Assembly: GCA_049325255.1 (NCBI GenBank)
Contig: JBMOMW010000057.1
Location: 3,804-67,803, forward strand
DNA length: 64,000 nt
Reading direction: 5' to 3'
Origin: Pseudomonadota bacterium
Lineage (GTDB): Bacteria; Pseudomonadota; Alphaproteobacteria; UBA11222
Positions 28,722 through 49,807 of this stretch are shown here, piece by piece. Within the stretch, counting starts at the first letter, position 1. The number at the start of each line of letters is the position of its first letter. Under the pieces are notes generated by a model. That model did no database searches. It was not told the origin of the DNA and saw only the letters and a list, made by a program, of their open reading frames with translations. A program made the translations under genes and the position numbers.

Positions 28722-29088
28722 ATGAAATCGCCGCTGCTGGCGCTACCCGGAAATGGGGCTATCAGCGAGCGCCTTACGGCGGCGCTCGTGGAGGAATATG
28801 CCGCTCCTGAAATCCGCCAATTTCCATATGGTGAGATCCATGTACGGCTCACCACCAATCTGGAGGCGCCCCCGGGTGGGTGTCCATGGCCTGTTCGCCG
28901 GTAAGGCCTATGACGAACTGTTTGCTACGGGCGCCAGGAAAATCGCGACCTGCAATACGGTTGCACATCCCAGCAACGCTATTGATGTTAAGGCGCTGAT
29001 TGCCGGAGCGGCGGAAGAATTATTGAAAGAACAGAAAACTAACAGCAGTTGCCCCATGTTAAGAGGTAATATTTTTGACCAGGTTTAG
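28722..29088 (+). pseudogene. remnant of a ribose-phosphate pyrophosphokinase-like gene (internal deletion plus frameshift)
   Basis: Frame 1 gives MKSPLLALPGNGAISERLTAALVEEYAAPEIRQFPYGEIHVRL, matching the N-terminus of the intact prs-like gene at 45133-46113. A second frame gives VHGLFAGKAYDEL...KIATCNTV...IAGAAEELL, matching its C-terminus. The central ~230 codons are missing. Confidence 0.55.
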
Positions 29089-29121
29089 GTGCTGCACACT
29101 GGCAAAACACAAGGAGATGAG

Positions 29122-31485
29122 ATGACGGCTATACCCGGCCCAGCAGAATTGGCGGCCCTCGACGCCTATTGGCGGGCGGCGAATTATTTGTCCGCCGGGC
29201 AGATTTATCTGCTCGATAACCCGCTGCTGCGCCAGCCGTTGACGCTTGAACATATCAAGCCGCGTTTGCTGGGGCATTGGGGCACTGTGCCGGGTTTGAA
29301 TTTTATTTACGCGCATCTGAACCGGATCATCCGGCGGGACGATCTTGATATGATTTATGTGACCGGGCCGGGGCACGGTGCGCCGGGTATTCTCGCCAAT
29401 GTCTATCTGGAGGGAACCTATAGCGCGTTCTACCCGGAAATCTCGCAGGACGAAGAGGGGTTGCGGAAATTTTTCCGGCAGTTTTCGTTTCCCGGCGGCA
29501 TCCCCAGCCATACCGCGCCAGAAACGCCGGGATCGATCCATGAGGGCGGGGAACTGGGCTATGCCCTGTCGCATGCCTATGGCGCGGCGTTCGATAATCC
29601 CGGTCTGATTGTGGCCTGTGTGGTGGGTGACGGCGAGGCTGAAACCGGGCCGCTCGCCACCGCATGGCATTCGAATAAATTCCTCAATCCGGCGCGCGAC
29701 GGCGCAGTGCTGCCGATCCTGCATCTCAATGGTTACAAGATCGCCAATCCCACGGTGCTTGCCCGCATCCCGCAGGCGGAACTGGAAAGCCTGTTCATCG
29801 GCTATGGCTATGAACCCTATATCATTGAAGGCAGTGATCCGACGCTTATGCATCAGCACATGGCCGAAATCATGGATAAGGTCATTGCACAGATCAAAAC
29901 CATCCAGCATGACGCGCGCGTAAATGGCGTGCGCGAGCGCCCGCGCTGGCCGGTGATTATTCTGCGCACTCCCAAGGGATGGACCGGCCCGAAGCAGGTG
30001 GATGGATTAAAGACCGAGGGATATTGGCGCTCGCATCAGGTGCCGGTGGCGGAACTGGCAAAAAAGCCGGGACATGTCGCGCTATTGGAACAATGGCTGC
30101 AAAGCTATCGTCCGCAGGAATTGTTTGATGAAACCGGACGTTTGCTGCCAGCCCTTGCGGCGCTGGCGCCTTCGGGCGCGCGGCGGATGGGCGCCAATCC
30201 GCATGCCAATGGCGGTCTGCTGCTGAAAAGCCTGAAGCTGCCGGACTTTCGCGATTATGCTGTCAAGGTGGTGACACCGGGGGAAGCAGAAGGCGAATCA
30301 ACCCGTGTCATGGGCAATTATTTGCGCGATGTAATGAAAGATAATCTCGCCACGCAGAATTTCCGCGTCTTTGGCCCCGATGAGACCGCATCGAACCGGC
30401 TGGGCGCACTGTTCGAGGTAACCGATCGCGCCTGGATGGGCGAACGCGATGCCGAAGACGATCATCTGGGGCCGGACGGCCGCGTCATGGAAATCCTGAG
30501 CGAGCATACCTGTCAGGGCTGGCTGGAAGGTTATCTGCTGACCGGGCGGCATGGGCTGTTTTCCAGCTATGAGGCGTTCGTGCATATTGTCGATTCGATG
30601 TTCAACCAGCACGCCAAATGGCTGAAGGTCAGCAGCGCCAGCATTGCCTGGCGGCGGCCGATTGCATCGCTGAATTACCTGCTGACTTCGCATGTCTGGC
30701 GCCAGGACCATAATGGTTTCAGCCATCAGGATCCGGGTTTCATCGACCATGTGGTGAACAAATCCGCCGATGTGGTGCGGGTGTATTTCCCGCCCGACGC
30801 CAATACGCTGTTATGGGTCACGGACCACTGCCTGCGCAGCCGCAATCTGGTGAATGTCATTGTCGCGGGTAAACAGAAGCAGCCGCAATGGCTGGATATG
30901 GAGGCGGCGATTTTACATTGCCAGGCCGGCGTCAGCATCTGGGAATGGGCCAGTACCGACCGGGACGCCGAACCGGATGTGGTGCTGGCCTGTTGCGGCG
31001 ACGTGCCGACGCTGGAGGTTTTGGCCGCCGTCGAGATTTTGCGCACCCATCTGCCGGAACTGAAAATCCGCGTCGTCAACATCATCGATCTGATGCGCCT
31101 GCAACCGCCCGAAGAACATCCAAACGGCCTGCCGGACGCCGAGTTCGACACGCTGTTCACCACGGACAAGCCGGTCATCCTTGCCTATCACGGCTATCCC
31201 TGGCTGATCCACCGTCTGACATACCGGCGCACCAATCACGGCAATCTGCATGTGCGCGGCTACAAGGAGGAAGGCACAACGACAACCCCGTTCGACATGG
31301 TGGTGCGCAACGATATTGACCGCTATCACCTGGTCGAGGACGTGATTGACCGGGTACCGGGGCTGGGCTACCGGGCGGCCTATCTGCGCCAGTTAGTTGG
31401 CGAGAAACTGATCGCGCATAAGGACTATATCGCGCGGCACGGCGATGACATGCCGGAAGTGCGCGACTGGAAATGGACGTGCTGA
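29122..31485 (+). CDS. xfp: phosphoketolase (xylulose-5-P/fructose-6-P phosphoketolase)
   Basis: N-terminal [27 protein letters not shown] and [15 protein letters not shown](A)FDNP are hallmark XFP motifs. RBS AAGGAG at 29111. Confidence 0.9.
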
Positions 31486-31500
31486 GATGGCTATGGCTGC

Positions 31501-32611
31501 ATGAATATTCTGACGATTAATGCAGGCAGTTCCTCTGTCCGTTTTGAATTGTTCACAGTAGTTGATGACGTTCCGCAATCGTTGGGACAGGCAATGTCGG
31601 CGGCAGGTGATCCAACCACTCTGTTCGCGCAGTTGGCGGCAGAAGCGGGGCTGGGGATAGAACCACCGTCCGCCGTCGCCCATCGCTGGGTGCATGGCGG
31701 ACCACAGGTGCGCAAGGCGGCGTTGATCGACGCGAATATAGAAGCGGCGCTTGCACAGGCCGCGCCTCTGGCGCCGCTGCATGCGCCCGCAAGCCTGGCC
31801 TGGCTTGCCCATTGCCGCACAATCATGGGGCCAGATGTGCGCCAGATTGTCGTTCCTGACACAGCGTATTTCGCCAGCATGCCGGATGTTGCAGCTAATT
31901 ACGCCTTGCCGCGGGAACTTTCCGCGCTGCACGGCCTTCGCCGTTACGGCTTTCATGGTCTGGCGCATCAGTCCCATGGTCACCCAATGGCTTGCCAGCC
32001 GTGGCGGCGATTTTGGCGATGCAAAGGTGATTTCATTGCAATTGGGTGCAGGGTGTTCCATCACCGCGAGCCGTGGTGGCGCGCCCGTGGACACCTCGAT
32101 GGGCTTCACGCCGCTGGAAGGCCTGGTCATGGCCACCCGCGCGGGCGATGTGGATGCGGGTTTGCTGTTTTATCTGCAACGCGAAGCAGGGATCGATGCA
32201 GCGCAACTGGAAACGCTTTTACAAAAGGAATCGGGACTGCTCGGCCTTTCGGGCGTCAGTGGAGACATGCGGGTTCTGCTCGCCGCTGACAAGTCCGCGG
32301 CAAAAAGCGCCATTGCGCTTTATTGCTATCGCGCGAAAAAATATATTGGCGCCTATCTTGCGGTGCTGGGCGGCGCCGACGCTGTGCTGTTTGGCGGCGG
32401 CGTTGGTGAGAACAGCCCGGAAATCCGTGCGCGCATACTTGCAGGAATGGGATGGTGCGGCCTTAAGCTCGACACCGCCGCAAATCAGGCGCCAAAGTTG
32501 CAAGGCGGACGTATCAGCACCGCCAATAGCAAAATCGAAATCGCCGTGATCCGCGTCGATGAAGCGCACATCATGGCGCAAGCCGCCGCTGATCTGCTAC
32601 GGGGAAAGTAA
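31501..32611 (+). CDS. ackA: acetate kinase, interrupted by a +1 frameshift near 31975-31985 (pseudogene or sequencing error)
   Basis: ORF 31501-32289 matches the AckA N-terminus (MNILTINAGSSSVRF..., RYGFHGLAHQ) and then loses similarity. ORF 31751-32611 in the next frame continues VTQWLASRGG...ISLQLGAGCSI...SMGFTPLEGLVMATRAGDVD...GGGVGENS. Confidence 0.7.
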
Positions 32612-32741: not shown

Positions 32742-32755
32742 TTGATTTGCATCAA
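32742..32755. promoter_or_regulatory. perfect FNR box TTGATTTGCATCAA upstream of the MBL/beta-CASP gene
   Basis: Read directly. Identical 14-mer to the box at 44038. Confidence 0.6.
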
Positions 32756-32859: not shown

Positions 32860-34251
32860 ATGACGCATCTCAACTTTCTTGGCGGTGTTGGAACTGTCAC
32901 TGGATCAAAATATCTGCTTGAGGCGGCCGGCCGGAAAATCCTCATTGATTGCGGGTTGTTTCAGGGGCTGAAGCAATTGCGGCTGCGCAACTGGGACAAG
33001 TTCCCGGTCAATCCCGCCCGGATCGATGCGGTGGTGCTGACCCATGCGCATCTTGATCATTCGGGCTATCTTCCGCTGCTCGTTAAAAACGGTTTCAGGG
33101 GGCCCGTGTTTTGTACGTCCGGCACCCGGGATTTGTGCGGCATCCTGCTGCCAGACTCAGGATATCTGATGGAACGCGACGCAGATTTCGCCAACCGGCA
33201 TGGTTTCTCCAAACACAAACCCGCATTGCCGCTATATACGGAGAAAGAAGCGCGCGCCTGCCTTGAGCAACTCGTTACAAAGAAATTTAACCGGCATTTT
33301 GATGTGACCCCTGAAATACAGGCCCAGTTCCATCCGGCGGGACATATTCTCGGCGCGGCGATCGTCACGCTCACCATAAACAAAACGAGGCTGGTCTTTT
33401 CCGGCGATCTTGGCAGGACCGGTGATCCGATCATGCACGATCCGGCGCATATTGCGCAGGCGGATTATCTGGTTGTTGAATCTACCTATGGCGACCGGAC
33501 GCACGAACCAGCCGATCCGCAGGATGCGCTGGCCGAAGTGATCGCCGCCACGGCGCAGCGCGGCGGTGTAATTCTGATCCCGACATTTGCCGTCGGACGG
33601 GCGCAGACACTGCTCTATCATCTGGAACAGCTCAAACGCGCGCGCCGCATCCCGGATCTGCCCGTCTATCTCGATAGCCCCATGGCGGTGAATGCAAGTG
33701 ACGTATTTTGCAACTATTTCGGCGAACATAGGTTGAATGCGGAACAGTGCCGTTCGCTGTGCGGCGTGGCGCGCTATGTGCGGGACGCCGAAGAATCAAA
33801 AAGCCTTGACCGGGACAAGATGCCAAAGGTGATCCTCGCGGCGAGCGGCATGGCGACCGGTGGCCGCGTCCTGCATCATCTCAAGGTCTTTGCGCCCGAT
33901 CCGCGCAACACGATCCTGTTTACAGGTTTTCAGGCTGCCGGAACCAGAGGCGCGGCGATGATGGCGGGGGCGCAAAGCGTCAAAATCCACGGCGGCTATG
34001 TACCGGTTCTGGCGGAGGTGAAAAATCTCCGGATGCTTTCGGCGCATGCGGACCGCCCGGAAATCCTGACCTGGCTCAGGCATTTTGACAGACCGCCACG
34101 CATGACATTTATCACCCATGGCGAACCGGTGGCGTCCGATGCGCTGCGGCTTGCGATTGAAGAACAGTTCAAATGGACCACGCGCGTGCCCGAGCATATG
34201 GAACGCGCTACGCTAGAGAACATTGAGCACACGCATGTCAAATCCACATAA
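32860..34251 (+). CDS. MBL-fold metallo-hydrolase with beta-CASP/RNA-metabolising domain (RNase J/CPSF-like)
   Basis: HAHLDHSG motif, beta-CASP region, C-terminal RMMBL-like segment. 463 aa. Confidence 0.8.
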   Translation: MTHLNFLGGVGTVTGSKYLLEAAGRKILIDCGLFQGLKQLRLRNWDKFPVNPARIDAVVLTHAHLDHSGYLPLLVKNGFRGPVFCTSGTRDLCGILLPDSGYLMERDADFANRHGFSKHKPALPLYTEKEARACLEQLVTKKFNRHFDVTPEIQAQFHPAGHILGAAIVTLTINKTRLVFSGDLGRTGDPIMHDPAHIAQADYLVVESTYGDRTHEPADPQDALAEVIAATAQRGGVILIPTFAVGRAQTLLYHLEQLKRARRIPDLPVYLDSPMAVNASDVFCNYFGEHRLNAEQCRSLCGVARYVRDAEESKSLDRDKMPKVILAASGMATGGRVLHHLKVFAPDPRNTILFTGFQAAGTRGAAMMAGAQSVKIHGGYVPVLAEVKNLRMLSAHADRPEILTWLRHFDRPPRMTFITHGEPVASDALRLAIEEQFKWTTRVPEHMERATLENIEHTHVKST

Positions 34252-35770
34252 TCTTCCCGGACATGCGCGGCCGCACACGCTACGCCTGCGGCGGCTGGGT
34301 ATCGACACGCATCAGGAGCTTGTCGTTTATATGCGGCAGGATTGTCATATCTGCCGGTCTGAAGGTTTTGCGGCGCAGGCGCGCATCCAGGTGACAGCCA
34401 ACGGCCACAGCATCATTGCAACACTGGGCAAGATCACCAGTGATTTGCTGGGTCATGGCGAGGCAAGCCTGTCTGAAAGCGCGTGGCGGCTGCTGGGGGT
34501 GGCGGAGGGCAGTGAGATTTCGTTCGCGCATCCGCCGCTTGTTGAATCGCTTGGCCTGATGCGGGGCAAAATCTATGGGCAGCGTCTGGATACGCGCGCC
34601 GCGCAGCAGATCATTCAGGACATTGTTGCGGGCCGCTATGCGGATGTGCATCTGTCCGCCTTTATCACGGCCTGTTCGGGGCGCGCCCTGAACCGCAACG
34701 AGATGGCCGCACTGACCAAGGCGATGGTTACAACAGGAAGCAGGCTGGACTGGGGAAACCAGCCGATTGCCGACAAACATTGTATTGGCGGCCTGCCAGG
34801 CAACCGCACAACGCCGATCGTGGTGGCGATTGCGGCGGCCTGCGGGCTTATCATCCCAAAAACCTCTTCACGGGCGATCACCTCTCCGGCGGGAACGGCG
34901 GATACGATGGAGACGCTGACCACCGTTGATCTGGATGTGGCCGCCATGCGCCGCGTGGTGGAGCAGGAGGGCGGCTGCATGGTCTGGGGCGGGGCTGTCG
35001 ATCTTAGTCCGGCCGATGATATTTTAATCCGTGTAGAGCGGATGCTTGATCTGGACAGTGAAGGTCAACTGGTTGCCTCTGTGCTGTCCAAGAAAATTGC
35101 CGCAGGCGCCACCCATGTGGTGCTTGATCTGCCCGTCGGACCAACCGCAAAACTGCGGACCATCACCGACGGGCATCATCTGACGAGCGCCCTGCGCGGC
35201 GTGGCCGAGGCCATGGGTCTGCATGTGCGTGTGACTGTAACGGATGGAACACAGCCGGTAGGGCGCGGCATTGGCCCCTCACTGGAGGCGCGTGACGTGC
35301 TGGCGGTGTTGCGCAATGATCCATCGGCGCCACAGGATCTGAGAGATCGCGCCGTCGATCTGGCGGCAATCCTGCTGGAGCTGGTGTTGCAGCTTTCTGC
35401 CAGAGAGGCCCTGGCCAAAGCCACGGAGGCGTTGCGCGATGGCAGCGCATGGCGGAAATTTGAGGCGATCTGCATGGCGCAGGGTGGCCTGCGCGAACCG
35501 CCACAGGCCACCCATAAACATCCGGTTCTGGCCGCGCATTCGGGTACGGTCACAAATATTGATAATCGCGTCCTGGCGAAAATCGCCAAGCTCGCAGGCG
35601 CGCCAAGCGCCAAGGCGGCGGGCCTTGAATTTCATACACCACTTGGCACGCAGGTTGCGGCAGGCATGCCGCTCTATACGGTGCATGCGCAATCCAGGGG
35701 TGAACTCGCCTATGCGCTTGACTATGTCCGCGCGCATCCCGGCGTAATCCGGCTGGAGGCCGACGCCTGA
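34223..35770 (+). CDS. thymidine phosphorylase-family protein (AMP phosphorylase-like, about 500-aa type)
   Basis: Glycosyl-transferase family 3 motifs (DKHCIGGLPGNRTTPIVVAIAAACG, SSRAITSPAGTADTMETL). Overlaps the MBL gene 3' end, suggesting an operon. Confidence 0.8.
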   Translation: MSTRMSNPHNLPGHARPHTLRLRRLGIDTHQELVVYMRQDCHICRSEGFAAQARIQVTANGHSIIATLGKITSDLLGHGEASLSESAWRLLGVAEGSEISFAHPPLVESLGLMRGKIYGQRLDTRAAQQIIQDIVAGRYADVHLSAFITACSGRALNRNEMAALTKAMVTTGSRLDWGNQPIADKHCIGGLPGNRTTPIVVAIAAACGLIIPKTSSRAITSPAGTADTMETLTTVDLDVAAMRRVVEQEGGCMVWGGAVDLSPADDILIRVERMLDLDSEGQLVASVLSKKIAAGATHVVLDLPVGPTAKLRTITDGHHLTSALRGVAEAMGLHVRVTVTDGTQPVGRGIGPSLEARDVLAVLRNDPSAPQDLRDRAVDLAAILLELVLQLSAREALAKATEALRDGSAWRKFEAICMAQGGLREPPQATHKHPVLAAHSGTVTNIDNRVLAKIAKLAGAPSAKAAGLEFHTPLGTQVAAGMPLYTVHAQSRGELAYALDYVRAHPGVIRLEADA

Positions 35771-35788: not shown

Positions 35789-35802
35789 TTTGACCCAGAT
35801 CA
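35789..35802. promoter_or_regulatory. FNR/FixK-type box TTGACccagATCAA upstream of the nitroreductase gene
   Basis: Read directly, about 130 nt upstream of 35931. Confidence 0.5.
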
Positions 35803-35930
35803 AATCCGCAGACCAGATCATGTATTAGGCTGCCCTTGTCGTAGGGAGGAATTCTTTATGCCGGCTCCATCCGTATTTTTTGATATTTCCAGCAGAACGC
35901 GGCGGTCTGTTCGCATGAAAAGTTCAGGAC

Positions 35931-36542
35931 ATGAATAAATCTTCGTTTGCGCCCAATCACCCCAATAATCCGATGAGCGTGATGGACGCAATTTATCATC
36001 GCCGCTCGGTGCGCGATTACACGCCTGAGAAAGTCAGCGAGGCCAGCATCCATATGCTGATGTACGCGGCCATCCAGGCGCCCACCGCCATGCATGAGGA
36101 ACCGTGGGCTTTTGCTGTTATTCAGGACCGGCACTTGCTGGACCGTCTGTCTGAAACCGCCAAGCGGACAATATGGCTGCAGGCGCAAGGCGAGGAAAAT
36201 TCAGGGCTGGCGCGACGCTCCGTAAATATTATCAGCGATCCGTCATACAATGTTTTCTATAATGCGGGCGCGCTGATTGTTATTTATGGCAAGCCGCTGG
36301 GGCCGTTCGTGGCTGCCGATTGCTGGCTTGCGGCGGAAAATCTGATGCTTGCCGCATGCGCCGCCGGACTTGGAACGTGCGTGATCGGTCTTGCCGTGCC
36401 GGCGCTCAATACACCCGAATGGAAGAATCTGCTGGATATTCCATTGGAAATGACGGCCCATGCGCCAATTCTGCTGGGCTATCCGGCCGGTACGCCACCA
36501 CCACCCGCCCGTAAATCTCCGGAAATGATATGCTGGAAATAA
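35931..36542 (+). CDS. nitroreductase-family protein
   Basis: Nitroreductase fold similarity (IYHRRSVRDY..., conserved C-terminal GxxGxG-like region). 203 aa. Confidence 0.8.
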   Translation: MNKSSFAPNHPNNPMSVMDAIYHRRSVRDYTPEKVSEASIHMLMYAAIQAPTAMHEEPWAFAVIQDRHLLDRLSETAKRTIWLQAQGEENSGLARRSVNIISDPSYNVFYNAGALIVIYGKPLGPFVAADCWLAAENLMLAACAAGLGTCVIGLAVPALNTPEWKNLLDIPLEMTAHAPILLGYPAGTPPPPARKSPEMICWK

Positions 36543-37401: not shown

Positions 37402-37415
37402 TTGACTGTAATCAA
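37402..37415. promoter_or_regulatory. FNR box TTGACtgtaATCAA upstream of fnr paralog 2 and divergent from the small Met-rich protein gene
   Basis: Read directly, about 90 nt upstream of the fnr-2 start codon. Confidence 0.55.
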
Positions 37416-40138: not shown

Positions 40139-42132
40139 TGGCTCATAAGCTTTTGCGCCGCAGCAATAATGGCCGGTATCTGCGGCAGCGCGGCTTCTTC
40201 AAGGTGGCGCGGATAGGGGATGGGAACCTCTGCGCTGCACACCCGCGCGACCGGCGCGTCCAGTTCCCAGAAGGCCTGCTCAACGATGACGGCGAAAATC
40301 TCCGCCGAAATACTACCTGTGCGCCAGCCCTCGTCAACGATCAGGGCGCGGCGCGTTTTGGCGACGGAAGCGATGATCGTTGCGGTGTCGAGCGGACGCA
40401 AAACGCGCAGATCGATCACCTCGGCATTGATGCCCTGGGCGGCAAGCGCGCCGGCCGCAGCAAGTGTTTTGGGAAGCGATCCACCATAGGTAATCAGCGT
40501 CACATCGCTGCCGGGGCGGCGGATGGCGGCTTTGGAAATATTCACCGCGCCCGCATTCTCCGGCAATGCGCCTTGCGTATTATACAGCATGACATGCTCG
40601 AAAATCAGAACCGGATCCGGGTCTTCCAGCGCCGTCAGCACCATGCCGAACACATCTTCATGCGTGGCGGGCGCAAGCACCTTGATGCCGGGAATATGCG
40701 CGAACCACCCCTCAAGACTGTGTGAATGTTGTGCGGCAAGCTGGCGTCCCGCGCCTGTCGCCATGCGCAGCACCAGCGGAACGCCGAATTGCCCGCCCGA
40801 CATATGCCGGATGGTGGCGGCGCTGTTGACGATCTGATCAAGCGCGAGAAGCGAAAAATTAACCGTCATCACCTCGACGATGGGCCGCATGCCGGACATT
40901 GCAGCGCCTATGCCCGCACCCACAAAACCGGACTCGGAAAGCGGCGTGTCGCGTATCCGCTCAGGCCCGAATTCGGCGAGCATGCCTTTCGACACCGCAT
41001 AACAGCCGCCATAGCGGCCAATATCCTCGCCCATCATAAAAACCTGCGGATCGCGCATAAACGCCGCACGCAATCCTTCGCGCGCCGCATCCCGATAGGT
41101 CAGTTTACCCGCTGGCGCAGTGATTACTGACGGAACAGCGGAGGCGGCTGTGCTGTAAACATGCTCTGCCAGCGTTTCAACAGGTTCCCACGGCGCCGCA
41201 TCAGCGAAACTTACGGCGTCCTTGATCTCTGCGTCTACCGCCTGCTCAACCGTCTGTAGTGCTTCGTCATGGGCGAGATGCGCATCGTGCAGCCAGGCGC
41301 GAAACCGCAGCAGCGGGTCTTTTGCTTTCCAGGCTTCGACCTCCGCCTTGTCACGATACAGTTGCGGATCAAACATGGAATGTGCGCGGAAGCGATAGGT
41401 CCGGCATTCAAGGAAATAGGGGCCATCTCCATTGCGAATGGCCGCGACGGCGCGGTGGGCAGTGGCGGCGAGCGCTACGACATCCATGCCATCGATCACC
41501 TCCGACGGCATATTGTAGCTCTGCGCCTTGAGGTGAATGTCCGGTTGCGATTCAGAAAGATCGAGCCTTGTTCCCATCGCATACAGGTTATTCTCGCAGA
41601 CGAACAGCACCGGCAGTTTCCAGAGCGCTGCAAGATTGAGGCTTTCATGAAACTCACCCTCGGCTGCCGCGCCCTCGCCGAAGAAGCAGGCAGCTATGCT
41701 GTCCTGTCCCTGCATCTTGTCGGCAAGGGCTGCGCCAACCGCAAGCGGCAGGCCGCCGCCGACAATGGCGTTGCCGCCATAAAACCGCGTAGTCTTGTCG
41801 AAAAGATGCATGGAGCCGCCGCGCCCGCCGCTGCACCCCGCCGCCTTGCCAAACATCTCGGCCATAATGGCGCGCATCGGAATGCCGCGCGCCAGGGCAT
41901 GACCATGCTCGCGATAGGTTGAAACAATGGTGTCATCGGTGCGCAATACCCGCATGATGGCTGCGGCGATGGCTTCCTCGCCAATCGCCAGATGCAGAAA
42001 GCCGCGAATTTTTTCCGCCTGATAAAGCTCGGCGCATTTTTCCTCAAAACGCCGGATGCGCAGCATCTGCCGGTAGAACTCCAGCAGTTCATCATGGGTC
42101 AGACGGAATTTCGGCCCTGTCGCCGCTGTCAT
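40135..42132 (-). CDS. fused E1 alpha/beta component of a pyruvate/acetoin-type 2-oxoacid dehydrogenase (TPP-dependent)
   Basis: 665 aa. N-terminal half has the E1-alpha TPP motif ([31 protein letters not shown]). C-terminal half is E1-beta/transketolase-like. Confidence 0.85.
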
Positions 42133-43886
42133 GGCGCGCCCTCTAATGTCGATATATCGCCTTCCGGCAAGCCAAGTTCGCGCGCCTTAAGCAACCGGCG
42201 CATGATCTTGCCACTGCGCGTCTTTGGAAGATTCCCGGTAAACTCCAGAAACTTTGGCGCGACAGCGGGCCCAAGGCGCTTGCGCGTATATCCCAAAATA
42301 TCTTTTCTGATTTCCTCGCTTGGCGCAATGCCAGGTTTGAGTGCGACGAAAGCCTTCACAACTTCGCCTGCCACCTCATCCGGCAACCCGATGACAGCGG
42401 CTTCCGCGATGGCTGGATGTTCGGTCAATGCGCTTTCAACCTCGAACGGGCCGATAAGATGCCCGGCCGATTTGATAAGATCGTCTGCCCTTCCGACGAA
42501 CCAGAAATATCCATCTGCATCCTGCATCGCCAGATCACCGGTCAGATACCAGCCGTTACGAAAATGTTTCTGATAACGTTCTTCCTCATGCAGATACCCG
42601 CGAAACATCGAAGGCCAGCCTGTCTTAAGCGCCAGCTCGCCCACCGTCATCGGTTTGCTGGTGATCTCAATGCGGCCTTCTTCAGTCGCATTAACGATTG
42701 CCGCCTCCATCCCTGGCAACGGACGTCCCATGGAACCAGGTTTCACGTCCATCGACGCGTAATTGGCAATCATGATGCCGCCGGTTTCCGTCTGCCACCA
42801 ATTGTCGTGGAACGGCAGGCCAAATTTTTCGTTGCTCCAGACCACGGCGTCGGGATTAAGCGGCTCGCCGACGCTCGCCATAAAGCGCAGACTATGGCGG
42901 GTTGGCGGGGGCACGGAATCTTCGCTTTTCATCAGCATACGGATGGCGGTCGGCGCGGTATACCAGATTGTCACCTTTTCTTCCTGGAGAATGCGGTACC
43001 AGCGCGCGGCGTCAAATTCGGCCTCATCGACGATCATGGTGAGCCCATTGGTCAGCGGGGCGATAATACCGTAAGAGGTGCCCGTCACCCAGCCGGGGTC
43101 GGCCGTGCACCAGAAAATATCGTCCGGGTGCATATCCAGCGCAAATTGCCCGGTCACGTGATGGGCGATCACTGCGGCATGTACGTGGATGGCGCCTTTG
43201 GGCCGCCCGGTCGTGCCGCTGGTGAAATGCAGCAGCGCGCGGTCCTCCGGCATGGTCTGCACCAGCGCCGGTCCGCCGCCGGCTTTTTGCAGGGCCTGGC
43301 TCCAGCCAATCACGCCGTCTTCCTTGGAATCACCGGCATCAATAAGGATAATGTGTTTCAGCGATGGCAGCTCCCGCCACCAGTTCGCCACCTTGCGCTC
43401 AAAGAGCCGCTGGGTGGTGACAAGCACGGCGGCGTCTCCGCGCTCCATCCGTGTGCGAATGGGTTCCGGCCCGAAGGCCGAAAACATCGGGCAGAACACG
43501 CTGCCGTTTTTCAGAGTTCCGAGCGCCGCGATATAAAGTTCAGGAACCCGGCCAGCCAGGACGAAAACAGCATCGTCTTTGCCAACGCCAAGCGCCTTCA
43601 GCGCATTGGCGAAACGATCTGTCCCGGTAGAAAGTTCTGCATAGCAAATGTCACGCCGTACATTGTCTTTTGAGATCCAGCGAATGGCGGTCTTGCCGCC
43701 AAGACCGTGAAGGACGTGCCGGTCGACTGCCTCATAGGCAATATTCAACCTGCCATCCGGCAAACCGTCAAGATCACCGCGCGCTTCCGCCCACGAAAAA
43801 TTCCGGCGTGCTTCCTCGTAGTTCTCGAGGTTGGGCGGTATGGCGAAAGAACCGCCCTTGCGGATGATAGGTGTTTCATTTGGCAC
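42129..43886 (-). CDS. AMP-forming acyl-CoA synthetase (acetyl/propionyl-CoA synthetase-like)
   Basis: AMP-binding motifs [10 protein letters not shown], YGxTE-like and a C-terminal lysine region. First gene of a 4-gene operon with 4-nt ATGA overlaps. Confidence 0.85.
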
Positions 43887-44037: not shown

Positions 44038-44051
44038 CCTTGATTTGCATC
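44038..44051. promoter_or_regulatory. perfect FNR box TTGATTTGCATCAA in the divergent promoter between the acyl-CoA synthetase operon and the APH-like kinase gene
   Basis: Read directly. Identical to the 32742 box. Confidence 0.6.
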
Positions 44052-44123
44052 AACTTCTGGTACAATGAATCGATGTTGCCAAGCAAAGCCGCCAGTGGCC
44101 GATTAAAAAGACGACGGTAACAA

Positions 44124-45161
44124 TTGATCAGGCCCCAGGAAATCTCTATCGAAGAAAAGGTGCGATTCCTGCAGCATCCGGCTGCCTATGGGCAACCGGG
44201 CACAGCGGAAGTGCTGGTCAAGGAAACGCATATGTCATGGGTGTTTCTGACCGGCGCGCGCGTTTACAAACTCAAGAAACCAGTCCGTTATGATTTCCTT
44301 GATTTCAGCACCCTTGATGCGCGCGAAAGAAATTGCCGCGAAGAAGTCCGGCTCAACCGCCGGCTGGCGGAAAATGTCTATCTCGGCGTTCTGCCGCTAA
44401 CGCTGAGCAGTAAAGGCGAACTTGCCATCGGCGGTGAGGGGCCATCGGTCGACTGGCTCGTCTTGATGCGCCGCCTCCCCTTGGATCGCATGCTGGATCA
44501 AGCCATCGAGAGGAGCACAGTCAGCCGCGCTGAAATCATCTCCGTCGCAGACCGGCTTTCGGATTTTTACGGACTTGCGCCGCCTGCGGAACTGACGCCG
44601 GAGGCTTATGTAGAGCAGTTCATCCGCGAGCAGGCGCAGACGCGGGCGGTGCTCACAGACCGGACTTTTGACTTGGACGGCGCGCGGATCGGGAAAATTC
44701 TTGGCGGCATAGAGGATATATTGTTTGCGCAATCTGAACTTCTGAAGGCGCGTGTTGAAGGTGGCAGGATCATTGAGGGACATGGGGATCTGCGGCCTGA
44801 ACATGTATGTCTCAATACGCCCCCGGTCATCATCGATTGCCTGGAGTTCAACCGGGGATTCCGGCTGGTTGATCCGGCCGACGAACTGACTTTTCTTGGC
44901 CTTGAATGCGAGCATCTCGGGGCGGGCTGGATTGGACCAGCGCTGTTAAACCGCTACACTGAGCGGCTTGGCGATACGCCATCGGCCAGGCTTATCGCGT
45001 TCTACCGCAGCCACCGCGCCTGCCTGCGGGCGCGCCTGTCACTGGTTCATATTCTGGAGCACGACCCGCGCAAACCGGAACACTGGCTGCCCCTGGCGCG
45101 CCACTATCTGGAACTGGCCGATACGACCGAACTCAATCCCGGCTTTCCAGAATCTCATTGA
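44124..45161 (+). CDS. aminoglycoside-phosphotransferase-like kinase (Rv2004c-like N-terminal family)
   Basis: HGDLRPEHV catalytic-loop motif. N-terminal SWVFLTGARVYKLKKPV...FLDFST...R motif is typical of the dormancy-associated APH-like family. Start could be the ATG near 44230. Confidence 0.65.
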   Translation: MIRPQEISIEEKVRFLQHPAAYGQPGTAEVLVKETHMSWVFLTGARVYKLKKPVRYDFLDFSTLDARERNCREEVRLNRRLAENVYLGVLPLTLSSKGELAIGGEGPSVDWLVLMRRLPLDRMLDQAIERSTVSRAEIISVADRLSDFYGLAPPAELTPEAYVEQFIREQAQTRAVLTDRTFDLDGARIGKILGGIEDILFAQSELLKARVEGGRIIEGHGDLRPEHVCLNTPPVIIDCLEFNRGFRLVDPADELTFLGLECEHLGAGWIGPALLNRYTERLGDTPSARLIAFYRSHRACLRARLSLVHILEHDPRKPEHWLPLARHYLELADTTELNPGFPESH

Positions 45162-46113
45162 CCGATCCTCCCTCGCGCAACACGCGGATCGTTTCGGCAA
45201 ACAGCGGCGCGGCGCTGACGATTTTGACATGGCCTGCAAGCACATCTTTGCCGAGCCGGAACGGCGGAAGGGAGTCGGTGATGAATAACCTGGCGAGATC
45301 GGGATGGCGCAGGGTGCCTGCTGCATCACCCGTAAACAGCCCATGGGCCGCAAACCCATAAACCGCCGTTGCGCCCGCTTGGCGGCAAGCCTGAGCCGCG
45401 CGAAGCATCGTTCCGCCGCCGCCGATCAGATCATCGAGGATCAGAACCGCCGCGCCGCTTACGTCGCCGGCCAGAAGCGTGCCGCTGACTTTTCCGGCGC
45501 TGCGGCGCTTGTCCATGAAGGCGCCGCCAACGGGCCGGCCAAGCGCCGTTTCCAGCGCCTCGCGAAACAGTTGCGCGCGCTTTACGCCGCCGGGGTCGGG
45601 CGATGCGACCACCAGTGGTTCGCTGCCAGCAAGTTCGCCTGCGCATTTGGTAAATAAACGCCTCGTGTCGAGATGAACCGTCCGGCAGCGAAAGGCGTTC
45701 TGGAAGGCGACGATATTGTGGACTTCCAGCGTGACGACGCAGTCAGTCCCAACGGCTTCCAGAAGCTGTGCGATATAGCGTGTTGTCACCGGATCATGGC
45801 TTTTGGTCTGCCGGTCCTTCCGGGCATAGGCCAGATAGGGAATGACCGCCGTTACGCGCGCCGCGCCGTTTTCCTTCATCGTCGCGATAAAAAAAAGCAG
45901 CCGGCAAAGCTTGTCGTTTGGCGACTGCTCCGGACCGCCATACAGGCTTTGGATAATATAGACATCCTCGCCGCGCACGCTCACCAGCGGCCGCGCCTTG
46001 TGCTCGCCATCCTCAAACTCGCGCTCTTCGTGCGCATCAAGCGTGACGCCAAGCGCCCTTGCTACCTTTTCGCCGAAGGTCCGGCTGGCATTGAGAGCAA
46101 ACAGTTTCATCAC
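45133..46113 (-). CDS. ribose-phosphate pyrophosphokinase-like protein (Prs family, divergent)
   Basis: Prs-like N-domain (FEDGEHKARP) and PRPP-binding loop VLILDDLIGGGGTM. 326 aa. Confidence 0.75.
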   Translation of the reverse strand: MMKLFALNASRTFGEKVARALGVTLDAHEEREFEDGEHKARPLVSVRGEDVYIIQSLYGGPEQSPNDKLCRLLFFIATMKENGAARVTAVIPYLAYARKDRQTKSHDPVTTRYIAQLLEAVGTDCVVTLEVHNIVAFQNAFRCRTVHLDTRRLFTKCAGELAGSEPLVVASPDPGGVKRAQLFREALETALGRPVGGAFMDKRRSAGKVSGTLLAGDVSGAAVLILDDLIGGGGTMLRAAQACRQAGATAVYGFAAHGLFTGDAAGTLRHPDLARLFITDSLPPFRLGKDVLAGHVKIVSAAPLFAETIRVLREGGSVNEILESRD

Positions 46114-46781
46114 CGTGTACGTCTGGCGCCGGGTGGGGGATGCGGAGCGGGCGCCTGCGCCATTAGCGCGCGCATCTCTTCGTCGTCTATCTGATGGAAA
46201 TCCTGATAATAAAGGCCGATTGCCCCGAAATAGTCATGCGTTTCAAGGCAGACGATCTCGTCGACCGTGTGCTTCAGGGCTGCGATCGTGTCCGCCGGCG
46301 CGACCGGCGCCGCTAGCACGAGCTTTTTTGGGGCAAGCGCCCGGACGGCGAGAATGGCCGCTTTGATTGTTGCGCCCGTCGCTATGCCGTCATCGACGAT
46401 AATTGCCGTTTGCCCCGGGATGCTGACGCGCGGCCTGCCAGCAAGATAGGTCTGCTGGCGGCGTTTGATTTCCGCAAGCTGCCGCTGCTTCTCTGCCTCG
46501 ATATAGGCAGGGGAAATATCAAGTTGGGCTATAATATCCTCGTTGAGGACAAGCTGTGGTTTTTCGCCGTCGACTACGGCGCCGATGGCAAGCTCCGGCT
46601 GCGATGGCGCGCCAAGCTTGCGCACGATAATGAGGTCGAGCGGCGCGTTGAGCAGCTTCGCGATTTCAAGCCCGACGGGCACACCGCCGCGCGGCAGCGC
46701 CAGCACGCAAGCATTCTTATTCTTGTAACCCATCAGCCTGGCCGCCAGGCGTTGGCCTGCTTCTTCACGGTTGGCGAACAT
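46110..46781 (-). CDS. phosphoribosyltransferase-domain protein
   Basis: PRTase type I PRPP-binding motif TAIIVDDGIATGATIKAA. 4-nt overlap with the downstream prs-like gene. Confidence 0.75.
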   Translation of the reverse strand: MFANREEAGQRLAARLMGYKNKNACVLALPRGGVPVGLEIAKLLNAPLDLIIVRKLGAPSQPELAIGAVVDGEKPQLVLNEDIIAQLDISPAYIEAEKQRQLAEIKRRQQTYLAGRPRVSIPGQTAIIVDDGIATGATIKAAILAVRALAPKKLVLAAPVAPADTIAALKHTVDEIVCLETHDYFGAIGLYYQDFHQIDDEEMRALMAQAPAPHPPPGARRTR

Positions 46782-47455
46782 CAGGAAATCCCCTTGCCTG
46801 GGCGCAAATGCGCGAGGAACCAGTCGCGAGCCAGTTCTATGACCTGCTCGAGCGCGCCCTGTTCCTCGAACAGATGGGTGGCGCCCGGCACAATCTCAAG
46901 CGCTTTGGCGCAACGCAGCTCTGCGAGAGCCGCCTGATTGAGAGAAAGCACCTCGAAATCTTGCCCGCCGGCAATGAGTAAAGTGGGCGCCGTGACGCGC
47001 CGCAACGCTGTGCCGGCAAGATCGGGCCGGCCGCCACGCGAGACCACCGCGCGAAACATGTCCGGTGCGCGCGCCGCCGTGACAAGCGCCGCCGCCGCGC
47101 CGGTGCTCGCGCCGAAAAGACCCAGGGGCAGGGCTGCCGCCGAAGGCTGTGTCACGACCCATTCGGCCGCCATTGACAACCGCCCGGCCAGCAGTTCGAT
47201 ATCGAACACATGCGAACGGCTGGCCGCTTCCTCCTCGCTCAGAAGATCAAAAAGCAACGTGCCGAAACCTGCCTCCCGCAGGGCGTTGGCGACGTGCATA
47301 TTGCGCGGGCTGAGCCTGCTGCTGCCGCTGCCATGGGCAAACAGGACAAGGCCATGCGCGGCCCTGGGGATATCAAGCGTACCCGGCAGCCCAAGCGGCG
47401 GTAACCGAACTTCCTCAAGCGTTGCGGATTGCATGGATTTACCCGACATAGGCAC
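46781..47455 (-). CDS. alpha/beta hydrolase (dienelactone hydrolase family)
   Basis: GLVLFAHGSGSS and the nucleophile elbow GLFGASTGAAAAL. Start/stop overlap with the PRTase gene. Confidence 0.7.
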   Translation of the reverse strand: MPMSGKSMQSATLEEVRLPPLGLPGTLDIPRAAHGLVLFAHGSGSSRLSPRNMHVANALREAGFGTLLFDLLSEEEAASRSHVFDIELLAGRLSMAAEWVVTQPSAAALPLGLFGASTGAAAALVTAARAPDMFRAVVSRGGRPDLAGTALRRVTAPTLLIAGGQDFEVLSLNQAALAELRCAKALEIVPGATHLFEEQGALEQVIELARDWFLAHLRPGKGIS

Positions 47456-47499
47456 TTTTTATCCTTAGATATGTAGCGCATCAGGCGCAATGCACTGGC

Positions 47500-49122
47500 C
47501 TACATCTGCATTTCTGCGCCCGGCATGTGCGCCCTCTCAGGCTCTGGAATTTCGGTCATGGTCGCCTCGGTCAGCAGCAAAATACCTGCCACGGATACGG
47601 CGTTTTCAAGGCCGATACGCACGACCTTGGTTGGATCAATAATGCCGGCTTCCACCAGATCGACATATTCTTTCCGCCCGGCGTCAAAACCGTAATTGCC
47701 CTTGCCTTCGAGCATACGGGCGACCACCACGCCGCCGTCCACCGCCGAGTTTTCGGCAATCTGGCGTGTTGGCGCCTCAAGCGCGCGTTTGACGATGAGG
47801 ACGCCGGTCCGTTCATCGCCTTCGCATTTCGCCTCCTCCTGCGCCACGGCCGCGATGCAGCGCAGCAGCGCCAAACCGCCGCCGGGTACAATGCCCTCCG
47901 CGACCGCAGCCTTGGTGGCGTTGATGGCGTCGTCGAGCGCCTCTTTTTTGGATTTCATTTCCGCTTCCGAAGGCGCGCCGACACGGATCACGGCGACGCC
48001 CCCGGAGAGCTTCGCCAGGCGCTCCTGCAGTTTTTCTTTGTCGTAATCGCTGGTGGTCTTTTCGATTTCGCGGCGGATTTGTTCAACGCGGCCGTCGATT
48101 TGTGCACGATCACCGCCGCCGCCGATAACCGTGGTATTATCCTTGTCGATGACAACGCGCTTGGCGCGCCCGAGCTGCTCAAGCGTCATATGCTCAAGCT
48201 TCAGGCCCAGCTCCTCGGAAATCACCTGTCCGCCTGTTAGAACTGCAATGTCCTGCAGCATCGCCTTGCGGCGGTCGCCAAATCCCGGGGCCTTGACGGC
48301 GCAGCATTTCAGCACACCGCGGATCTGGTTGACGATGAGCGTGGCGAGCGCCTCGCCCTCAACTTCCTCCGCAATCACCAGCAGGGTTTTCCCGGCCTTT
48401 ACGACTTGTTCGAGCAAAGGGATCATGTCGTTGAGGACGCTGATCTTGCGATCAGACAGCAGGATCAGGCAATTTTCCAGCACCGCCTCCATCTTTTCCG
48501 GATTGGTGATGAAATAGGGTGACTGAAAGCCCCGGTCGAACCGCATGCCTTCAACAACATCAAGCGCTGTTTCCGTCGTCTTGGATTCCTCGACCGTAAT
48601 CACCCCGTCGTTTCCGACCTTGTCCATCGCCTCCGCGATAAGCTCGCCGATGGCGGGATCATTGTGCGCGGAGATCGCGGCGACCTGCGCCTTCTCCTTG
48701 CGTGTCGCCACCGGCCGCGATAAGGCCCGCAACGCTTCTATCGCGGCCCTGGCGCCCCGATCCAGACCGCGCCTGATATCGATTGCGCTGGCGCCCGCGA
48801 CAACATTGCGGATGCCATCGGCCAGTATTGCGTGCGCCAGGATGGTTGCGGTGCTGGTGCCGTCGCCAACCATCTCGCCGGTCTTTTCCGCCGCCTGGCG
48901 CAGCATCCGGGCGCCCAGATTCTCTTCCGGATCTTTGAGATCGAATTCCTTGGCGATGGTGACGCCGTCGTTACAGACGATGGGCGCGCCCCACTTTTTT
49001 TCGATCAATACCGATTTCGATCGCGGCCCCAGCGTTACGCGGACTGCGTCAGCAAGCTGCGCAGCGCCACGCAGTATTTTTTCGCGGGCTGCGGATCGGA
49101 AAAAAACCTGTTTATGCGCCAT
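47500..49122 (-). CDS. groL: chaperonin GroEL paralog (no adjacent groES; C-terminus lacks the GGM repeat)
   Basis: Full-length Cpn60 similarity ([35 protein letters not shown]). Ends ...[18 protein letters not shown]. No co-chaperonin ORF upstream. Confidence 0.9.
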
Positions 49123-49209
49123 CCGTTATCTCCCTGAATTGTGGCGTGGCGGGCGATTTCGTCACAATGGAAATAAAGTATCGAAAAAAATCTGATATTG
49201 AATTGATTT

Positions 49210-49223
49210 CGGTCAAGGCAGAC
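49210..49223. promoter_or_regulatory. FixK/FNR-type box TTGATttcgGTCAA in the groEL/hsp20 divergent promoter
   Basis: TTGA-N6-TCAA core read directly between 49122 and 49277. Confidence 0.45.
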
Positions 49224-49276
49224 GCGGCTCGCAGTACTTAGTTTGTAATCCTAACCCCCTAACAGGAGAAACAGAC

Positions 49277-49807
49277 ATGACCGAACCGACATCCAAACTA
49301 CCTGTACTTACGGAGAAAAAATCATCCGGGCTGCAGACCTGGCATCCGATCGAGAGCCTGCGCCGTGAGGTCGACCGGATATTCGAAGATTTCGACCGGG
49401 ATTTCTGGCGCGCGCCTTTCCGCCGCTCGTTTCAGGACATCGAACCGGTGCTGCGGCGCGGGTTAAGCTGGGGCGCCAGTCCGGCTATTGACATTGTGGA
49501 CAAGAGCGAAGCCTATCAGGTCGTGGCGGAATTGCCCGGCATGGATGAAAAGAATGTTGAGGTAAAGCTGGTCAACGGCAGTCTGACCATCAAGGGCGAG
49601 AAGCGCGACGAGAAAGAGGAGAAGAAAAAGGATTACTATCTTCATGAGCGCAGCTTCGGCTCTTTTGAACGCAGCTTCGCCCTGCCCGATGAAGTCGATG
49701 CCGACAAGATTGAAGCGAGCTTCAGCAAAGGCGTGCTTACAGTGACCCTTCCCAAAAAGCCAGAAGCCGTGAAGCCCGAGAAAAAGATCGAGGTCAAGGC
49801 TGCCTGA
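49277..49807 (+). CDS. Hsp20/alpha-crystallin family small heat-shock protein
   Basis: Alpha-crystallin domain (AIDIVDKSEAYQVVAELPGMDEKNVEVKL...GVLTVTLPK). Confidence 0.9.
   Translation: MTEPTSKLPVLTEKKSSGLQTWHPIESLRREVDRIFEDFDRDFWRAPFRRSFQDIEPVLRRGLSWGASPAIDIVDKSEAYQVVAELPGMDEKNVEVKLVNGSLTIKGEKRDEKEEKKKDYYLHERSFGSFERSFALPDEVDADKIEASFSKGVLTVTLPKKPEAVKPEKKIEVKAA

Follow-up and report, generated by a model that had tools for sequence, protein, structure and literature searches.

The window examined here, a 64-kb stretch of DNA taken as a whole, comes from contig JBMOMW010000057.1 of a metagenome-assembled genome (MAG) with the NCBI label 'Pseudomonadota bacterium'. We propose, with a probability of about 0.75, that an uncultured alphaproteobacterium carries here a low-oxygen stimulon island, which reaches from position ~21 kb (possibly 14 kb) to 49.8 kb of the window. 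This region is unified by co-regulation, not by one linear pathway. In Bradyrhizobium diazoefficiens, the equivalent operons carry boxes, depend on FixK2 and respond to microoxia; the island therefore belongs, in condensed form, to a regulon type already known from the FixK2 regulon, the Burkholderia low-oxygen-activated (lxa) locus and, by analogy, the DosR regulon.

The island is a mosaic of cassettes, each conserved separately elsewhere and each placed behind a TTGA-N6-TCAA box: a copper (Cu)-ATPase; phosphoketolase and acetate kinase (Xfp-AckA); a beta-CASP RNase with an AMP-phosphorylase-like protein (and a Prs-like partner); a nitroreductase; a hibernation-promoting factor fused to a cold-shock domain (HPF-CSD); an acetate-CoA ligase with pyruvate dehydrogenase-type E1 and E2 and an acyl carrier protein-like gene (Acs-PDH-ACP); an APH-like kinase; GroEL with a hydrolase, a phosphoribosyltransferase (PRTase) and a Prs; Hsp20; LemA-TPM; and a cyclopropane-fatty-acid (CFA) synthase. 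The two Crp/Fnr paralogues of the region would recognise the boxes: when O2 falls, the holo-regulator with its Fe-S cluster would bind them, and about ten units would be activated together. Xfp and AckA would supply substrate-level, respiration-independent ATP from sugar phosphates and, with Acs-PDH-ACP, would handle acetyl groups. The RNase, the AMP-phosphorylase-like enzyme and Prs/PRTase would handle nucleoside monophosphates (NMPs) from RNA turnover; HPF-CSD would preserve ribosomes, GroEL and Hsp20 would maintain proteostasis, and the nitroreductase, CFA synthase, LemA-TPM and Cu-ATPase would serve redox, envelope and metal functions.

FNR-type boxes and the two Crp/Fnr paralogues

The sequence TTGAT-N4-ATCAA is present at four exact sites in the window, compared with 0.05 expected, and at 10 sites (1.9 expected) when one mismatch or none is allowed. 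The core TTGA-N6-TCAA is found at 11 sites, against 0.48 expected. Ten of these 11 core boxes precede a gene start by ~45-160 bp, and every transcription unit in the interval 26.4-49.8 kb has a core box upstream (Table 1). The FNR-type wiring described in the first-pass annotation of this DNA is borne out by these counts. The same annotation had bounded the island at 28722-49807, and here the left edge has to be moved: boxes at 23252 and 21187, and also at 26419, indicate that the box-bearing region starts left of 28722. The box upstream of the fnr gene at 37402 suggests that autoregulation is possible. Beyond the island, just after tRNA-His, another core box was observed at 55695.

Enrichment of boxes is not confined to this genome. 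The comparative set comprised 80 phosphorylase loci from species-representative genomes, each with 10 kb of flank on either side; the counts given over these loci are lower bounds, as many contigs are incomplete. Core boxes were found 67 times against 14 expected (~5-fold enrichment) and strict boxes 20 times against 1.15 expected. At least one box was present in 40 of the 80 loci, often heading the ATPase or the beta-CASP gene. The box that heads the ATPase unit of the window (26419) is identical in the relatives L001, L083 and L084. In L083 and L084, the box at 26212 is identical as well, besides the intergenic one.

The two Crp/Fnr paralogues are ~78% identical (alignment and tblastn) and, as had been noted, one of them lies within 28722-49807. 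Both have cNMP-binding-like and HTH_Crp_2 domains, and both carry an ETFSR recognition helix (E--SR motif), which is the type expected for TTGA-N6-TCAA sites. No cysteine cluster like the one at the N-terminus of FNR proper (C-x2-C-x5-C and one central Cys) is conserved between the two paralogues. A C-terminal motif, C224-x2-C227-x5-C233, is conserved in both, and all Crp/Fnr homologues encoded beside related islands have C-x2-C-x5-C-(G/A)-T-H and no N-terminal FNR cysteines. The homologue of locus L034, which carries seven strict boxes, is only 43% identical and yet keeps the C-terminal motif.

In Bacillus subtilis Fnr, the ligands of the [4Fe-4S] cluster are C227, C230, C235 and D141 (PMC3520743). 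The proteins of the island resemble this type in having a C-terminal Cys cluster in place of the N-terminal FNR cluster (PMC3520743); they differ in lineage and in spacing (C-x2-C-x4-C in B. subtilis, C-x2-C-x5-C here), and a fourth ligand is named for B. subtilis only. By analogy with B. subtilis Fnr, O2 is probably sensed through the C-terminal Cys motif, as a predicted O2-labile Fe-S centre. Crp/Fnr proteins with C-terminal cysteines may form an unrecognised subtype of O2 sensor in Alphaproteobacteria.

The operon of the RNase, the phosphorylase and the Prs-like protein

In the window, the 3' end of the beta-CASP gene overlaps the start of the phosphorylase gene. The closest solved structure of the beta-CASP protein is Thermus thermophilus RNase TTHA0252 (E = 9e-75), and its other top solved relatives are Cas14 and archaeal/eukaryotic aCPSF/CPSF73-type enzymes. 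It had first been labelled RNase J-like. This label was dropped in favour of the TTHA0252/CPSF type, as the RNase J1 model scores 18.6 bits for a cutoff of 820 and RNase J is absent among the 26 PDB matches of the protein.

The phosphorylase exceeds the cutoffs of PRK04350 (668 bits, cutoff 434) and of TIGR02645 ARCH_P_rylase (585 bits, cutoff 435), and falls below that of the AMP_phos equivalog TIGR03327 (468.2 versus 535, the model covering residues 20-505). Its best solved relative is the AMP phosphorylase of Thermococcus kodakarensis (TkAMPpase; 4GA4/5/6, E = 9e-98, 332 bits for 4GA5), and the alignment starts in the N-terminal domain; matches to classical thymidine phosphorylase (TP) or PyNP reach at most 125 bits, about 1e-35. 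The possibility of a plain thymidine phosphorylase, raised in the first-pass annotation, was ruled out by this difference. The protein is AMP-phosphorylase-like in sequence, and NMP phosphorolysis is its predicted activity; TkAMPpase takes all NMPs (PMC8376864). Residues 40-45 of the N-terminal domain form a D40-C41-x2-C44-R45 motif, invariant in 28 of 28 aligned homologues, which may serve as a metal or redox site in what would be an enzyme induced by hypoxia.

In the Prs-like partner, which is closest to archaeal class III Prs, the motifs for catalysis known from the archaeal class III phosphoribosyl pyrophosphate (PRPP) synthases are retained (RQDK, DPHxH, a K-x-R loop and DDIISTxxT). An intact homologue in locus L085 scores 408 bits with PRK07199 (cutoff 322). 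A housekeeping Prs, also raised as a possibility in the first-pass annotation, was excluded, the partner being a dedicated class III-type gene.

In the window, the nucleotide/acetyl-phosphate part has two damaged genes. The 'decayed Prs' copy of the first-pass annotation does exist as a remnant, now recognised as an internal-deletion pseudogene of the class III Prs-like gene: residues 1-49 are encoded at 28722-28868 and residues 245-299 at 28876-29040, in different frames, so that ~195 codons, or 585 bp, of a roughly 300-residue protein are deleted, and the remnant scores only 46.7 bits with PRK07199 (cutoff 322), over model positions 245-299. The ackA gene is also present, as had been stated, and it is frameshifted by 1 nt (+1/-1) near 31970, so that the reading frame changes after residue ~157; the unrepaired frame is broken, and the repaired protein passes TIGR00016 (308 bits, cutoff 293). 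The other ORFs (open reading frames) are intact, and xfp has a likely start at ATG 29122 preceded by AGGAG.

Across the 80 loci, a class III Prs-like gene was found near the phosphorylase in 67, almost always immediately downstream (a class I Prs query finds fewer, 56 loci), and a beta-CASP gene in 50. A P1B-type ATPase was present within 10 kb in 24, a phosphoketolase-family gene in 13, an archaeal type II glyceraldehyde-3-phosphate dehydrogenase (GAPDH) in eight, a class I polyphosphate kinase 2 (PPK2) in eight, and ackA and Hsp20 in six each. Acs, nitroreductase and Fnr genes were found in two loci each, HPF-CSD, E2, PRTase and APH-like genes in one each, and E1, ACP, hydrolase and GroEL genes in none. 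From these counts, the conserved unit is the RNase-phosphorylase-Prs-like operon. It was found in Alpha-, Beta- and Gammaproteobacteria, Bacteroidota, Planctomycetota and Myxococcota; Achromobacter ruhlandii LMG 1866, Paracoccus endophyticus and Legionella drancourtii are, like B. diazoefficiens, carriers that have been cultured. Recurrent neighbour clusters c12-c24 were considered as further parts of the module and rejected, since they reflect lineage synteny of Oceanospirillales and Burkholderiales. Of the co-occurrences that the first-pass annotation had proposed to look for, those of the Prs-like and, more rarely, phosphoketolase-family and ackA genes were found, and that of HPF-CSD was seen in one locus only; its notion of one unit does not hold for HPF-CSD, E1/E2/ACP/Acs, PRTase, hydrolase and GroEL (0-2 of 80).

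Of the phosphoketolase-family neighbours, four are canonical; the remainder, about nine, fall in a divergent clade of ~800 residues that matches Pfam XFP and scores 124-148 bits, compared with NCBIfam phosphoketolase cutoffs of at least 777. These genes are often inside the phosphorylase operon, in the order TP-ackA-xfp-like-prsL in L027 and L055, and the ackA and xfp-like ORFs overlap in L027. A reciprocal set was made of the 80 closest Xfp homologues on metagenome contigs: ackA is beside Xfp in 35 of them and the phosphorylase operon in two, so that Xfp-AckA is an autonomous module. The Xfp-AckA pair joins the phosphorylase operon in a minority of lineages only. For the cassettes of hibernation, chaperone and PDH/Acs genes, shared regulation in the island is the only link to it.

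In the three closest relatives, PPK2 comes directly after the phosphorylase gene and overlaps its stop codon; PPK2 is absent from the window, where the nitroreductase gene is next instead. The nearest relative in GTDB is an Alphaproteobacteria MAG (L001) with a phosphorylase identity of 82-83%. It was observed that the closest characterised relatives of the phosphorylase, of the Prs-like enzyme and of the recurrent GAPDH are all archaeal. The window and the annotated recurrent neighbours of the 80 loci (10 kb flanks, recurrent clusters only) yielded no ribose-1,5-bisphosphate isomerase, no RuBisCO, no phosphatase (RuBP phosphatase included) with aldolase, and no enzyme that would lead from ribose-1,5-bisphosphate to xylulose-5-P or fructose-6-P. 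Literature searches returned no described function for the phosphorylase/Prs/metallo-beta-lactamase (MBL) operon, and no link with phosphoketolase, beyond two Bradyrhizobium omics papers.

Other cassettes and flanking genes

Gene calls were based on a six-frame ORF map together with Pfam and NCBIfam scans, and all the genes listed in the first-pass annotation were recovered (Table 1).

Table 1. Genes and boxes of the window, in order of position, followed by homologues in related loci
Feature	Position	Strand	Remark
Hybrid histidine kinase, LuxR-type response regulator, branched-chain/amide-type ABC transporter, formamidase (FmdA_AmdA)	2148-12970		
LuxR-type response regulator	2148-3116		Far outside the island
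Second Crp/Fnr paralogue	14126-14881	-	Pfam cNMP_binding and HTH_Crp_2; left of 28722
DUF6629 membrane protein	14979-15653	+	Adjoins second fnr paralogue
Exact box TTGATTTGGATCAA	21187-21200		~68 bp upstream of LemA-like ORF
LemA-like ORF	21262-21864		Followed by two TPM-domain genes; 'LemA-like' as read from the sequence
Box, 1 mismatch	23252-23265		~97 bp upstream of CFA synthase
CFA synthase	23355-24740		
Box TTGATCTGGGTCAA	26212-26225		Inside csoR-like coding sequence
Core box TTGACTTGGCTCAA	26419-26432		Heads ATPase-(prsL remnant)-xfp-ackA unit
Copper-type P1B heavy-metal ATPase with YHS domain	26471-28681	+	TIGR01511 597 bits, cutoff 397
Class III (PRK07199-type) Prs-like pseudogene remnant	28722-29040	+	
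Phosphoketolase (Xfp)	29122-31485	+	NF003619 1484.8 bits, cutoff 962; all three XFP Pfam domains
Acetate/propionate-family kinase (ackA)	31501-32611	+	Split over two frames
Exact box TTGATTTGCATCAA	32742-32755		~111 bp upstream of beta-CASP gene; heads beta-CASP-phosphorylase
Beta-CASP MBL, TTHA0252/CPSF type	32860-34251	+	Pfam Beta-Casp and RMMBL
TP-family protein, AMP-phosphorylase-like clade	34223-35770	+	Extra N-terminal domain
Box, 1 mismatch	35790-35803		~134 bp upstream of nitroreductase gene
Nitroreductase-family protein	35931-36542	+	
Crp/Fnr regulator	36558-37313	-	
Box, 1 mismatch	37402-37415		~95 bp upstream of fnr gene
Exact box	37637-37650		~84 bp upstream of small secreted protein/HPF-CSD pair
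Small Met-rich protein	37728-38030	+	Signal peptide; no family match
Short HPF (S30AE)-CSD fusion	38055-38621	+	
ACP-like	38682-38930	-	
E2	38927-40138	-	
Fused PDH-type E1 alpha+beta	40135-42132	-	
Acetate-CoA ligase (acsA)	42129-43886	-	PRK04319 882 bits, cutoff 729
Exact box	44040-44053		Divergent promoter, acsA-E1-E2-ACP / APH-like gene
APH/kinase-like protein	44124-45161	+	Weak Pfam APH match (E = 0.0025)
Prs, divergent class I-type	45133-46113	-	
PRTase	46110-46781	-	
Alpha/beta hydrolase	46781-47455	-	
GroEL, solitary	47500-49122	-	No groES beside it
Box, 1 mismatch	49203-49216		Divergent, between groEL-hydrolase-PRTase-prs and hsp20
Hsp20/alpha-crystallin	49277-49807	+	
Core box TTGACGCGGATCAA	55695-55708		57 bp upstream of flavin-monooxygenase-like gene (55752-57299)
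Crp/Fnr homologues with C-terminal motif	L001 4096-4830, 14341-15075; L085 13355-14089; L034 3075-3806		
Divergent phosphoketolase-family genes	L027 12621-15035; L056 12481-14886		Also in L028, L034, L040, L050, L055, L061, L077
Archaeal type II GAPDH	L063 16017-17072		448 bits, cutoff 185; homologues in L019, L050, L057, L062, L068, L069, L078
Class I PPK2	L085 4895-5701; L083 7355-8161; L001 11533-12336		Overlaps phosphorylase stop

The HPF-CSD protein matches Pfam S30AE (55.8 bits, cutoff 23.7) and CSD (47.3 bits), and scores 32.1 with TIGR00741 (cutoff 40.9). The family is widespread and already annotated: nearly all of the best 120 matches listed have the same two domains. A literature search for the fusion gave nothing relevant. 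The small Met-rich protein encoded before it (stretch GGMMMMN) and HPF-CSD apparently share one transcript, which has an exact FNR box ahead of it.

The acsA-E1-E2-ACP cassette (38682-43886) has no E3 gene. It is also present on plasmids of Methylocystis rosea and Burkholderia sp. JP2-270, where it adjoins a universal stress protein (USP) gene, or PRTase, nitroreductase and Hsp20 genes; the Burkholderia plasmid island brings together PRTase, nicotinate PRTase, Acs-PDH-ACP, nitroreductases and Hsp20. For the putative APH kinase, described at first as Rv2004c-like, the kinase part of the name agrees with the weak Pfam match and with a conserved HGDLRPEH catalytic-loop motif, and is used in JGI records as well; no sequence match was found in the PDB. 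The groEL-hydrolase-PRTase-Prs genes (45133-49122, minus strand) form an apparent operon, and their order is repeated on an independent Logan contig (L086).

Copper-homeostasis genes (CopB, cupredoxin, an LTXXQ protein, a CsoR-like repressor and the Cu-type P1B ATPase) are interleaved with the box-bearing units at 17633-21037 and 25414-28681, and a likely CopA candidate lies on the minus strand around 18.3-20.0 kb. The same interleaving of copper and low-oxygen genes is seen in the relatives L083 and L084. The DUF6629 gene is also near the phosphorylase operon in nine other genomes (L001, L009, L038, L043, L057, L062, L063, L068 and L069). The genes at 2148-12970 look like an amide-utilisation cluster unrelated to the island, and housekeeping genes (L,D-transpeptidase, folD, argG, rlmN and tRNAs) are found beyond 50 kb.

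The base composition of the island is uniform with that of its flanks, and no integrase or transposase was present among the window ORFs scanned. A scan of the window for sigma-70 promoters and terminators was uninformative (four promoter-like sites compared with 8.5 expected). When the 21-kb island was compared with plasmids by megablast, the matches, at ~70-75% identity, were to single genes or cassettes only, and none extended to a syntenic island.

Rival readings and known systems

Several observations weigh against a low-oxygen stimulon. The Crp/Fnr regulators miss the curated FNR, FixK and FtrB cutoffs by far (best score 67.9 bits, for 211), and their pairing with the boxes is drawn from proximity and from the recognition-helix motif only. 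Low-oxygen, regulator-dependent induction is established for the orthologous B. diazoefficiens operons only, and is carried over to the island by analogy. The box at 26212, located inside csoR, may not be functional. Many phosphorylase loci of Gammaproteobacteria and Bacteroidota have no box, therefore FNR wiring is lineage-specific. Finally, because the source is a MAG, the lesions of ackA and of the Prs-like gene could both be assembly or population artefacts.

In the first-pass annotation, the genes were joined in a single ATP-salvage pathway under anoxia. Spelled out in full, HPF-CSD would hibernate ribosomes, the beta-CASP RNase would make 5'-NMPs from RNA, the phosphorylase would give ribose-1,5-bisphosphate and this would enter the pentose phosphates, phosphoketolase would cleave them to acetyl-phosphate and AckA would form ATP. 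That the RNase, the phosphorylase and the Prs-like gene form a conserved operon, that the phosphorylase is nearest to an enzyme accepting all NMPs (PMC8376864), and that all units are co-wired to FNR boxes in the island agree with such a pathway. So do the phosphoketolase-family and ackA genes in or beside the operon (as in L027 and L055) and the nearby GAPDH and PPK2 genes, these insertions occurring in several phyla. However, nothing that would turn ribose-1,5-bisphosphate into a substrate of phosphoketolase was found in the window or the recurrent neighbours, HPF-CSD, GroEL, E1, hydrolase and ACP genes are hardly ever or never near the phosphorylase, the linkage is facultative (two of the closest 80 Xfp loci have the operon, 35 have ackA), and both ackA and the Prs-like gene are defective in this copy. 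Prs and PRTase moreover consume ATP or PRPP and therefore fit salvage better than catabolism; as it stands we consider the single pathway rather unlikely. The same low credence is given to a rebalancing of nucleotide pools, where NMPs would be split into bases and ribose-1,5-bisphosphate, the Prs-like enzyme would make PRPP (from ribose 5-phosphate or the bisphosphate) and PRTases would rebuild nucleotides or NAD for dormancy, the neighbouring Xfp/AckA being a separate, co-regulated module. Salvage accounts for the Prs and PRTase genes equally well as the linear pathway does, and it is in keeping with the class III catalytic motifs of the Prs-like partner, with the second Prs of the island in an operon with a PRTase, with the two PRTases of the Burkholderia plasmid island, with the putative PRTase Rv0571c of the DosR regulon (PMC5309233) and with PPK2 directly after the phosphorylase in the closest relatives; but it leaves the phosphoketolase-family, ackA and GAPDH insertions inside the operon of several genomes unexplained, and each of its steps is predicted from sequence, not biochemistry.

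A bolder proposal, which we hold to be unlikely, is that the RNase/phosphorylase/Prs-like operon does in bacteria, without RuBisCO, what the pentose bisphosphate pathway does in archaea, as a hypoxic shunt from NMPs through acetyl-phosphate to ATP, switched on by a new alphaproteobacterial class of Fnr with a C-terminal Fe-S motif. The Prs-like enzyme would conserve the glycosyl-phosphate energy of ribose-1,5-bisphosphate (by phosphoryl transfer to AMP/ADP, or as PRPP), and the phosphoketolase-family enzyme would split the pentose to acetyl-phosphate, giving ATP without respiration. The island might also be accidental and decaying, made of stress and copper genes accreted by horizontal transfer, partly pseudogenised and devoid of joint function, or else its lesions might be assembly artefacts. 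The Prs-like deletion and the ackA frameshift are as expected from decay; so are the different gene order in relatives with 82-91% phosphorylase identity (PPK2, a methyltransferase, an intact Prs-like gene, no xfp), the presence of cassettes on plasmids elsewhere, the interleaved copper genes and the MAG origin of the sequence. The presence of a box on every unit and the strong enrichment of boxes nevertheless argue that regulation has been maintained, and the uniform base composition, the otherwise intact ORFs and the lack of integrase or transposase among the ORFs scanned also speak against decay, which we find distinctly improbable. The low-oxygen stimulon, in which the cassettes would share regulators and not a single pathway, is the reading that we retain.

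Low-oxygen co-induction, which the first-pass annotation had predicted, has a precedent in the orthologous operons of B. diazoefficiens (PMC9104804, PMC6515984). In this bacterium, bll3117-bll3116-bll3115 (TP family-Prs-MBL) has a FixK2 box at -74; loss of fixK2 lowers the two genes of it that are listed, bll3117 7-fold and bll3115 31-fold (PMC9104804). The bll2518-bll2517 genes (phosphoketolase-acetate/propionate kinase), groEL5, hspC2 (Hsp20) and the nitroreductase gene blr4652 are FixK2-dependent and have FixK2 boxes, and USP and ppsA genes behave likewise under FixK2 (PMC9104804). Microoxia raises the proteins of bll3117-3115, phosphoketolase, a nitroreductase and an Hsp20 (PMC6515984). 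The likeness extends to the operon types, a solitary GroEL among them, to the TTGA-N6-TCAA-type boxes and to the alphaproteobacterial host (PMC9104804, PMC6515984). The statement that no such unit was described in an alphaproteobacterium consequently remains correct for the pathway idea and not for the co-regulated gene set. Differences are also clear: FixK2 operons are scattered over the Bradyrhizobium chromosome, whereas those of the island are packed into ~28 kb; the gene order is TP-Prs-MBL there and MBL-TP here; the regulator here is no FixK2 orthologue, having the C-terminal Cys motif and meeting no family cutoff; and the island adds HPF-CSD, Acs-PDH-ACP and Prs-PRTase-hydrolase, two of its genes being broken.

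The lxa locus of Burkholderia cenocepacia is contiguous, induced by low O2 and needed for anoxic survival (PMC3721108). It shares with the island a TGA-N6-TCA Fnr/Anr-like motif, Fnr-like regulators, Hsp20, nitroreductase, ackA and a cation P-type ATPase (PMC3721108). It belongs to a betaproteobacterium and differs by being rich in USPs, polyhydroxyalkanoate (PHA) synthesis, ribonucleotide reductase and alcohol dehydrogenase genes; no match to Usp or PHA synthase domains was found among the window ORFs scanned with Pfam. The lxa paper mentions neither phosphoketolase nor thymidine phosphorylase (PMC3721108). Its authors already drew the parallel with DosR (PMC3721108). The DosR regulon of Mycobacterium tuberculosis is analogous in gene content, as it too has Hsp20 (HspX), nitroreductases and a P-type ATPase, besides Rv0079, which is ribosome-associated, Rv0571c, a putative PRTase, and Rv2004c (PMC5309233, PMC3721108). 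This likeness is one of gene content by analogy, not of gene-by-gene orthology. DosR is a NarL-type response regulator acting with Dev boxes, whereas the island regulators are Crp/Fnr proteins and its boxes are of the FNR type (Dev boxes were not searched for), and the DosR regulon has no phosphoketolase or AMP-phosphorylase-like genes.

The pentose bisphosphate pathway of archaea comprises DeoA (in T. kodakarensis), ribose-1,5-bisphosphate isomerase and type III RuBisCO. The archaeal features of the operon and its neighbours are a phosphorylase with the N-terminal domain, a Prs closest to class III and, in some genomes, a type II GAPDH. The partners here are instead the beta-CASP RNase, the Prs-like enzyme and sometimes phosphoketolase, AckA or PPK2, and the phosphorylase is likened to the archaeal enzyme by sequence, under the AMP_phos cutoff (468 versus 535). 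The operon is widespread and oxygen-regulated in a model rhizobium, and no function is assigned to it in the literature searched. Together with its neighbours (phosphoketolase-family enzyme, AckA, GAPDH, PPK2 and Cu-ATPase), it offers a testable hypothesis on adenylates and ATP during hypoxic dormancy of non-fermenting aerobes, a question that bears on rhizobial bacteroids and on the persistence of opportunistic pathogens. Most of the island would be recognisable to specialists in the hypoxia responses of rhizobia or Burkholderia, and we regard it as another case of a known strategy, in which aerobes place an anoxia-survival gene set under the control of FNR/FixK, Anr or DosR.

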